64,000 nucleotides of DNA from a phage, in assembly GCA_012813795.1 (NCBI GenBank), contig GCA_012813795.1_4087.1; one strand, given 5' to 3'. Shown in pieces: positions 59,197 through 60,309 of the stretch. The position numbers and the translations under genes were made by a program. Below the pieces are notes generated by a model. It did not search any database. It saw only the letters and a program-made list of their open reading frames with translations, and had not been told where the DNA came from. The first letter of the stretch is position 1, and each line of letters opens with the position of its first letter.

Positions 59197-60309
59197 TTAA
59201 AACATTTGTTGAATTGCTTCACAACGTAAATCTGAAACAAAATCACGGATTTCAGATGCTTCTAACTCACCGTCTTTTACCAGTTGTTGAATATCTGGAA
59301 GTACTACATCAGTGTAACGATCATATACCTTAATGATTAAATCTTCAAGGTCTAAATCAATCTCTTTACGTAGAATAAAATATTCCAGTACTTTGTAAAG
59401 GAATTCTTCACCGCCGTTATTCTTGATATTCATATCCAGTAATAATTGTCCCATTTCATTTGGGGTCTTTTTACGGAATGCCTTGATATCATCACGGAAA
59501 CGTTTGATGTAATTACTGAATTTAACGTACTTAACGGGCATTTTAATAGCACCATTCAGTACTGAATCCTCGCCAACTTCTTCTTTCTCAAGAAGCACAG
59601 ACCATAAGAAATATGGCTTATATGCTTCAGTACAATTATCAGAGATATGATCAATGAGTTCCAATGACTTTTTGGTTAATGTAGCATTAAATGCTTTTTC
59701 ATAGTAACCCAACTTACTTAGTGTTTTAAGGAACTTAGCTGGCTTTTCTTCTGACAGTGCTTTTTCAAATTCAACATAAACACGGTCTGGAACAAGGTGA
59801 TTTAGCTCACCAGACGCTACCATATCGATTGCAAGTGCTTCAGTAGTCTCGTGTATAGAGAAATCAGAATAACGCGTAGCAAAGCGAGCTAGACGTAATA
59901 CACGCAATGGATCTTCTTTGAAGTGCTCGGATACATGGCGTAGTACTTTATTCTTGATATCAGCTTTACCACCGTATGGGTCGATGTGAATTTGCAGTAC
60001 TGGATCATACGCTATTGCATTAATTGTAAGATCACGACGAAACAAATCTTGTTCCAGTGTTACACCTTTTGTATCCACTTCGAAGCCACCGTATCCAGTA
60101 CCAGTTTTTCGTTCAGTACGGGCTAATGCGTGTTCGTTACCTTCTGGGCTTAGATAAACTGGAAAATCTTTTCCAACCTGTTTATATCCAATACTTTCTA
60201 AGTATTTGATATCAGATTCAGTTGCACCAACAATGACATAATCTTTGTCCTTTGCTCTCTCACCGATTAATCGTGCCCTTACATATCCACCCACTAGATA
60301 TTTTTTCAT
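59197..60309 (-). CDS. cca: tRNA nucleotidyltransferase (CCA-adding enzyme), class II head/neck without recognisable HD domain
   Basis: 370 aa; LVGGYVRARLIG, DKD catalytic pair, ARTERK and RRDLTINA motifs; alignable with bacterial CCA enzyme N-terminal half; no H...HD phosphohydrolase motif in the C-terminal part. Confidence 0.8.
   Translation of the reverse strand: MKKYLVGGYVRARLIGERAKDKDYVIVGATESDIKYLESIGYKQVGKDFPVYLSPEGNEHALARTERKTGTGYGGFEVDTKGVTLEQDLFRRDLTINAIAYDPVLQIHIDPYGGKADIKNKVLRHVSEHFKEDPLRVLRLARFATRYSDFSIHETTEALAIDMVASGELNHLVPDRVYVEFEKALSEEKPAKFLKTLSKLGYYEKAFNATLTKKSLELIDHISDNCTEAYKPYFLWSVLLEKEEVGEDSVLNGAIKMPVKYVKFSNYIKRFRDDIKAFRKKTPNEMGQLLLDMNIKNNGGEEFLYKVLEYFILRKEIDLDLEDLIIKVYDRYTDVVLPDIQQLVKDGELEASEIRDFVSDLRCEAIQQMF

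Follow-up and report, generated by a model that had tools for sequence, protein, structure and literature searches.

The window analysed here is a whole 64,000-nucleotide (nt) stretch (contig GCA_012813795.1_4087.1) of an Asteriusvirus jumbo coliphage, a genus with genomes of ~350 kb. The subject is a minus-strand gene, cca, predicted to encode a class II tRNA nucleotidyltransferase of 370 amino acids (aa). The region is 96% identical to that of Escherichia phage A4 and ~82% identical to those of 121Q, PBECO4, Sharanji and other Asteriusvirus phages. The exact protein is recorded solely as 'hypothetical protein [Escherichia coli]', the complete jumbo-phage genome (357,761 bp) lying within a bacterial assembly. 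Related phage records already name the gene tRNA nucleotidyltransferase, CCA-adding enzyme or 'multifunctional CCA protein ... phosphatase', and the enzyme itself is an ordinary, annotated jumbo-phage CCA-adding enzyme. What is new is the alanine at residue 12, which is private to one genome and lies within a recoded patch beside a mobile endonuclease-like gene. The N-terminus of the protein, encoded by the open reading frame (ORF) 59197..60309 on the minus strand, is MKKYLVGGYVRARLIGERAKDKDYV. The gene and its parts are as follows:

59197..60309, minus strand: cca, intact ORF for a predicted 370-aa class II tRNA nucleotidyltransferase, stop codon included
59938..60300, minus strand: head (catalytic) domain, aa 4-124, with motif A (GGYVRA, D21xD23), flexible loop, motif B (RRD) and motif C, placed by PF01743 and invariant columns
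60241..60249, minus strand: DxD catalytic carboxylates, D21-K-D23, invariant in 32/32 family members
59689..59865, minus strand: neck/RNA-binding region, aa 149-207, with motif E at 175-183, placed by PF12627
59200..59703, minus strand: body/tail domain, aa 203-370, what remains of an E. coli-type HD region after loss of all its metal ligands

Domain structure of the cca product

The protein matched the Pfam families PolyA_pol (head, PF01743) over residues 4-124 with 61.9 bits (cut-off 23) and PolyA_pol_RNAbd (PF12627) over residues 149-207 with 31.3 bits (cut-off 22), in agreement with the class II head and neck motifs (DKD, RRD and an ERxxE-type motif) that the initial annotation had recognised. 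The profile phrog_2244 'tRNA nucleotidyltransferase' covered residues 1-369 (profile positions 3-387 of 392) with an E value of 5.4e-112. The NCBIfam models for E. coli-type Cca scored 270, 227, 205 and 196 bits; NF008137, the E. coli multifunctional CCA protein, gave 270.4 bits against a cut-off of 451 and was matched at positions 1-202 of its 409. BLASTP alignment with E. coli Cca showed 53% identity (198 bits) over residues 1-201, with a gap of only one residue in the flexible loop.

Motif conservation was judged on an alignment of 32 family members. Invariant in all of them are D21 and D23 of DxD, ALARxERK of the flexible loop, and R91, R92 and D93 of motif B. The same holds for D110, P111, G114 and D117 of motif C, for E132, D133, P134, R136, R139, R142 and F143 of motif D (EDPLR at 132-136), and for R176, V177, E180 and K183 of motif E (DRVYVE at 175-180). 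The DxD pair is the metal-binding pair of class II enzymes (PMC12166844). In motif A, G7, G8, R11, D21 and D23 are present and the last Asp of GGxVRD is Ala in the window allele only. An AlphaFold 2 model (mean predicted local distance difference test score 91.7) superposed on solved class II CCA enzymes over ~390 columns, with a Foldseek template-modelling score of 0.73 to Thermotoga maritima 3H38, and has the head-neck-body-tail fold.

The initial annotation had stated that the protein, at 370 aa, has no H...HD motif in its C-terminal region, and this was borne out. No Pfam match to an HD domain was found in the whole protein, and the C-terminal 168 aa searched alone gave no Pfam match even at E<=10; in the same search the E. 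coli Cca control showed HD (PF01966) at residues 229-328. When the residues conserved in HD-bearing homologues were mapped onto the phage family, H223, D227, H255, D256 and K259 (E. coli Cca numbering) aligned to gaps, and the HD ligands H231, H273, H305 and H309 were substituted by E/K, K/N, R/T and K, respectively. Only P291 and D345 are retained among the mapped residues of the HD region. After residue 202 the window protein contains a single His, which is unconserved. A cryptic intact HD site is excluded by this residue map. These results support the conclusion that the window protein lacks a functional HD phosphohydrolase, as predicted from its sequence.

The C-terminal half is nonetheless related to that of the E. 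coli enzyme. Alignment of the C-terminal halves only with hhalign paired phage residues 233-369 with residues 264-403 of E. coli Cca (probability 92.7%, E 4e-7), which excludes an unrelated C-terminal tail. The half folds as the body/tail of a CCA enzyme, and its ratio of nonsynonymous to synonymous substitution rates (~0.07-0.10) indicates purifying selection. The contrast that the initial annotation drew with the bifunctional bacterial enzyme therefore holds for the absence of the HD domain, but the C-terminus is still homologous downstream of H255-D256 and the absence is not unusual. Every full-length relative has the HD-less architecture, among them those of Klebsiella phage phiKp_21, Cronobacter phage GAP32, Salmonella phage PHA46, Xanthomonas phage XaC1 and Erwinia phages. 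Short HD-less homologues also occur within bacterial chromosomes, for example P0083, located between TatD and type II secretion genes, and the human CCA enzyme is likewise without an HD domain (PMC6961547). Since the absence is clade-wide in Rak2-like jumbo phages, present in bacterial chromosomes and shared with the human enzyme, it is ordinary.

Relatives of the phage cca are encoded on 335 viral contigs in IMG/VR. In the records ON286972 (A4_536), OR545507, LT603033, MK817115 and KM507819 the HD-less protein is labelled 'multifunctional CCA protein', '2'3'-cyclic phosphodiesterase/2'nucleotidase/phosphatase' or plain 'phosphatase'. Because the phosphohydrolase core is absent, these labels are over-annotations derived from E. 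coli Cca. The absence of the domain, a selected architecture of the whole clade and no oddity, corrects this widespread over-annotation and is otherwise of limited importance.

Alanine 12, the recoded patch and the neighbouring gene

The 5' end of cca and the sequence upstream of it carry these features:

60274..60276, minus strand: codon 12, GCA (Ala) in place of the GAC/GAT (Asp) of all relatives in the homologue comparison; D12A in GGxVRD
60256..60298, minus strand: hyper-diverged 43-nt patch, gene nt 12-54, codons 4-18, defined by comparison with the closest empty-site relative
60313..60939, minus strand: inserted 208-aa HNH/AP2-like gene (phrog_953), putative free-standing homing endonuclease, absent from this junction in most relatives
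60316..60321, minus strand: AAGGTG, Shine-Dalgarno-like sequence for cca, within the 3' end of the inserted gene
60941..61063, minus strand: conserved 40-aa ORF (121Q gene 538), left flank of the insertion, directly adjoining cca in empty-site phages

Position 12 was evaluated in the 120 best database homologues, leaving out P0077, which is truncated at the N-terminus. Asp12 was found in 118 of the 118 other listed homologues with an N-terminus, including proteins 96-98% identical to the window protein, and in all 80 of 80 IMG/VR loci. Ala12 is thus unique among ~200 homologues and private to one genome rather than a trait of the family. The replacement of GAC/GAT by GCA takes two base changes. 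An independent Logan re-assembly of run SRR2034070 was identical over 4,810 bp, which excludes an assembly artefact, though the same reads probably lie behind both assemblies. The GGYVRA spelling to which the initial annotation had drawn attention is therefore real but, belonging to a single genome, is not a property of the enzyme family. The protein has one further private amino-acid change, Y90F, at a variable column.

Codon 12 lies in the patch, which was delimited by comparison with the closest empty-site relative (L007, protein P0002). The two cca genes differ at 29 of 1,113 positions, 20 of which fall within gene nt 12-54, while the flanks show 11 differences in 558 nt upstream and 6 in 756 nt downstream. 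The clustering has a single-window binomial P of 4e-22, and 200,000 permutations gave a maximum of 10 differences per 43-nt window. Thirteen of the 15 patch codons are changed, nine of them synonymously (including CGC to AGG and CGT to AGA) and four non-synonymously (C10V, D12A, M15I and I17E). Host cca, which differs at 21 of the 43 positions, was excluded as donor of the patch. As a separate observation, the motif encoded by nt 12-54, variable though that stretch is, is the best conserved in the enzyme.

The patch starts ~15 nt from the 208-aa HNH/AP2-like gene, whose stop codon precedes the cca start codon by three bases. The inserted gene has the same ending, ...ATTAATAAGGTGTAA, in all four occupied lineages, and this ending supplies cca with its AAGGTG ribosome-binding site. 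The junction is empty, with the 40-aa ORF directly against cca and near-identical flanks, in 121Q, UE-S1, E9.1, L007/L008 and L009/L010. In other backbones this junction is taken up by relatives of the 208-aa gene: P0124 (88% identical) was recovered from four independent samples with a JNE01-like backbone, and P0125 (62%) and the L035 homologue (60%) stand beside distant cca genes. Among PHROG families the 208-aa protein hits those called 'HNH endonuclease' (phrog_953, E 9e-69). Its homologues turn up in 1,630 phage records; a single genome can hold as many as 7 copies, and their positions differ between related jumbo phages. Conserved features of the family are YxxWxxMxxRCYS, LDKD...YSPxTC...N and an AP2-like GV...LGxFxTPEEAH; one member carries a precomputed match to PF00847. 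A sequence search of the PDB with the HNH-like protein returned nothing meaningful.

Other lineages bear on the same junction. In A4 it holds an unrelated 355-aa gene, A4_535 (L001 5707..6774), with a DUF4379 treble-clef zinc finger and a weak, sub-threshold match to DUF2726, and the A4 cca has its own diverged 5' tract of ~290 nt; 61 of the 64 differences between the window and A4 genes lie in nt 1-294. Since A4 holds both an unrelated gene and a diverged tract of its own, the junction appears to be a hotspot at which mobile nuclease-like genes of different kinds insert. The cca genes of L018 and JNE01 also differ mainly at the 5' end: 55 of the 80 differences fall in the first 300 nt, and the last 360 nt are identical. 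Arg11 is encoded by AGR in 4 of 5 occupied alleles and by CGN in 23 of 23 alleles without an adjacent insertion, although the alleles are not phylogenetically independent. AGR as a universal mark of occupied alleles was excluded, since L035 keeps CGT. In GAP32 a homologue of the HNH-like gene (L025 857..1467) is split into two frames ~1 kb upstream of cca and may be a decaying copy.

Role of the enzyme and origin of the patch

No tRNA genes were found within the 64-kb window. Asteriusvirus genomes contain 6-7 tRNA genes (PMC11895373; PMC13070987; PMC11465974), and the clusters were located in A4 (L013 4109..7178) and Sharanji (L012 9712..13954) and their 3' ends read. In A4, CCA is encoded by the Met, Ser(gct), Gly and Ser(tga) genes and is absent from two of six, Thr(tgt) ending in ...A-C-aaa and Asn(gtt) in ...G-C-aaa. 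In Sharanji it is absent from four of seven (Thr, Asn, Ser(act) and Gly). All tRNA genes of E. coli encode CCA, so that the host Cca is a repair enzyme only (PMC6961547). A phage with tRNA genes that do not encode CCA would have an evident use for additional CCA-adding capacity. The HD domain of E. coli Cca removes 2',3'-cyclic phosphates, according to Yakunin 2004 as cited in PMC6961547; with the domain lost, such ends, which most RNases leave, would not be healable by the phage protein alone. The CCA-less tRNA genes of relatives, together with the missing HD domain, make maturation a better-supported role than counter-defence.

The enzyme would then belong to the E. coli Cca lineage, having had its HD core excised but retaining the head, the neck and a helical body/tail that serves to bind tRNA. 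During infection it is expected to complete tRNA ends bearing a 3'-OH by adding C-C-A or whatever part of it is missing. Its main substrates would be phage tRNAs from CCA-less genes, and it would secondarily restore ends that had been trimmed; removal of 2',3'-cyclic phosphates would be beyond it. The best explanation for the patch is divergence of the target site, or a co-conversion tract, tied to homing of the adjacent HNH/AP2-like gene; it has the look of homing-endonuclease-associated recoding, its sequence pattern being the basis from which we infer a causal link to the neighbour. To this reading as a whole, an HD-less phage CCA-adding enzyme with predicted activity and likely substrates as described and a homing-linked GGYVRA patch, a probability of roughly 0.75 is assigned. 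The patch would then provide a compact, testable natural example of homing elements shaping the codons of a conserved catalytic motif.

Several observations weigh against parts of this reading. The 208-aa protein showed no match to Pfam HNH or AP2 at E<=10 and its family has no invariant catalytic His, so that it is a putative nuclease only; of the AP2-type endonuclease-like gene described in the initial annotation, the position against cca, the PHROG match and an AP2-like segment recognised by eye stand, but the AP2 domain is not found by Pfam. An exact search of IMG/VR and the JGI metagenomes revealed no donor of the patch, the nearest allele differing at 14 of 43 positions. Empty-site Asteriusvirus alleles are themselves unusually variable synonymously in gene nt 12-54, with a median of 10 pairwise differences in 43. 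Asp12 is retained in the other occupied alleles and CGT in L035, so that neither D12A nor AGR is required for coexistence with the insertion. With Asp12 invariant in ~200 homologues, D12A may cripple the window allele. Finally, the tRNA evidence comes from the relatives A4 and Sharanji, and a maturation role in the window genome is extrapolated from them.

The alternative that survives best, a serious possibility though not the favoured one, is that the window enzyme is inactive or badly impaired through D12A and that a decaying gene is tolerated since the host Cca substitutes for it. The occurrence of Asp12 in every listed homologue with an N-terminus and every IMG/VR locus, the two base substitutions that the change requires and the existence of a host Cca that could substitute are all in its favour. 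In T4, tRNA maturation is served by the host Cca. Against it, the ORF is intact and the other motifs are all preserved, the sole other private change being Y90F at its variable column, and Asp12 does not belong to the three carboxylates to which metal binding is ascribed in class II enzymes. Within GGxVRD the Gly and Arg probably bind the triphosphate, and other aspartates are the metal ligands (PMC12166844). No role is assigned to the Asp of GGxVRD in that paper, and literature searches with literal spellings of the motif gave nothing relevant. One paper combining a CCA enzyme with a phage (PMC13219725) proved irrelevant, the enzyme being used there as a reagent. Both a tolerated change and an impaired enzyme are compatible with these results, the invariance of Asp12 arguing for its importance and the intact gene arguing against decay. 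The Cca of the window isolate may consequently not represent the family biochemically.

A stronger form of the homing-linked reading is advanced only tentatively and is rather doubtful, namely that the 208-aa gene is an active homing element recognising the DNA that encodes GGxVRD, that the patch is a cleavage-resistant allele and that the selfish element drove D12A. In that case D12A would be tolerated through backup by the host Cca and might alter or abolish the activity of the enzyme.

It is unlikely that the patch is unrelated to the neighbour and arose because mRNA structure or translation initiation was adjusted to the changed upstream sequence, or through ordinary recombination with an unsampled phage. 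In favour of this, synonymous changes form the majority (9 of 13 codons) and the patch falls within the region of translation initiation, where the insertion has altered the Shine-Dalgarno context; the stretch also varies across the genus. The replacement of an invariant Asp is, however, left unexplained. Moreover, three further lineages (the L018 group, L022 and L035) carry the same type of endonuclease gene at the exact junction, where A4 has its unrelated nuclease-like gene; the L018 group and A4 show 5'-biased divergence from their nearest relatives; and the switch of Arg11 to AGR is seen repeatedly, and solely, in occupied alleles.

A mainly counter-defensive role, in which the phage Cca restores tRNA 3' ends damaged by acceptor-end toxins or nucleases of the host or a competitor, is likewise judged improbable as the principal function. 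The gene is kept across the phage clade, and counter-defence is compatible with maturation and not exclusive of it. However, the HD module for removing 2',3'-cyclic phosphates is gone, which places typical nuclease products beyond this protein alone (PMC6961547); the genes next to cca include neither an RNA ligase nor a kinase-phosphatase partner; and the CCA-less phage tRNA genes are a sufficient housekeeping explanation. The missing HD domain thus weakens counter-defence without excluding it, and the likely role moves from the counter-defence suggested by the initial annotation towards maturation of phage tRNAs without encoded CCA.

Identity as a poly(A) polymerase, or as an enzyme with partial activity (A-adding or CC-adding), is very improbable: all class II motifs are common to poly(A) polymerases, the Pfam name of the domain is 'PolyA_pol', and PDB matches include A-adding enzymes and poly(A) polymerases, but the PcnB models TIGR01942 (85.1 bits, cut-off 305.65) and NF008634 (45.5 bits, cut-off 702) both stayed below their cut-offs, the A-adding model gave 59 bits, and identity to E. 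coli PcnB was 33% (63 bits), values far from those for E. coli-type Cca, whose flexible loop also aligns with a single one-residue gap, so that a poly(A) polymerase or an A-adding enzyme is rejected on profile scores and pairwise identity. Set against class II CCA enzymes and poly(A) polymerases, the protein is Cca-like, with all catalytic motifs kept except for Ala12, and the results support its assignment as a class II CCA-type nucleotidyltransferase for which CCA addition is predicted.

Surrounding genes and comparison with known systems

Downstream of cca, every Asteriusvirus relative examined has a Nudix hydrolase, a glutaredoxin, two small ORFs and a macro-domain gene, and a ribosome hibernation factor homologue lies a few genes upstream of cca in the window:

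58694..59110, minus strand: Nudix hydrolase, order kept in the Asteriusvirus relatives examined
58441..58689, minus strand: glutaredoxin, order kept in the Asteriusvirus relatives examined
57378..57890, minus strand: macro-domain gene matching phrog_335 'phosphatase', ending the downstream block 57378..59110
62577..62909, minus strand: HPF/RaiA (Ribosomal_S30AE) ribosome hibernation factor homologue, 110 aa

The proximity of the HPF/RaiA homologue to cca indicates that translation-related genes cluster at the locus. Three consecutive minus-strand ORFs of ~138 aa each (61075..61497, 61484..61900 and 62112..62525) appear by eye to be tandem paralogues sharing ...Q[YF]xFIDDTFxID...; none of the three had a Pfam match.

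The phage protein resembles E. coli Cca (b3056, NF008137) in aa 1-201 (53% identity), in motifs A-E and the flexible loop, and in the homology of its C-terminal half to residues 264-403. It differs in being ~40 residues shorter, with the HD core (H223, D227, H255-D256 and K259) deleted and the remaining His ligands substituted; unlike E. coli Cca, it is not expected from its sequence to have 2',3'-cyclic phosphodiesterase/phosphatase activity. The Rak2-like jumbo-phage enzymes of phrog_2244 (121Q gp539, GAP32, phiKp_21, PHA46 and XaC1) are alike in matching end to end, in length and in lacking the HD domain, and the Asteriusvirus relatives also share the Nudix, glutaredoxin and macro-domain neighbourhood. 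The Ala for Asp in GGxVRD and the recoded codons 4-18 set the window allele alone apart from them. Identity to the solved HD-less enzymes of T. maritima (3H37/3H38), G. stearothermophilus (1MIV) and human (1OU5/4X4W) is only ~20-23%, and the body/tail of the phage enzyme descends from an HD-bearing ancestor, not from the lineages of those enzymes.

Free-standing endonucleases of T4 are intergenic, cut a neighbouring conserved gene and co-convert its flanks (PMC2988022). The 208-aa gene resembles the T4-like mobE, segF and segG in lying between conserved genes, in being present or absent among close relatives, and in being multi-copy and scattered. It also supplies the ribosome-binding site of the downstream gene, and a strongly diverged tract lies in the adjacent conserved gene, as in those systems (PMC2988022). 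The sequence pattern would fit an element that cleaves alleles lacking it at a specific site and shows super-Mendelian inheritance. Unlike the T4-like enzymes, the 208-aa protein has neither a canonical HNH His nor a Pfam nuclease match, and its putative target, at ~15-60 nt from the insertion, would be closer than those of the T4 free-standing enzymes (PMC2988022).

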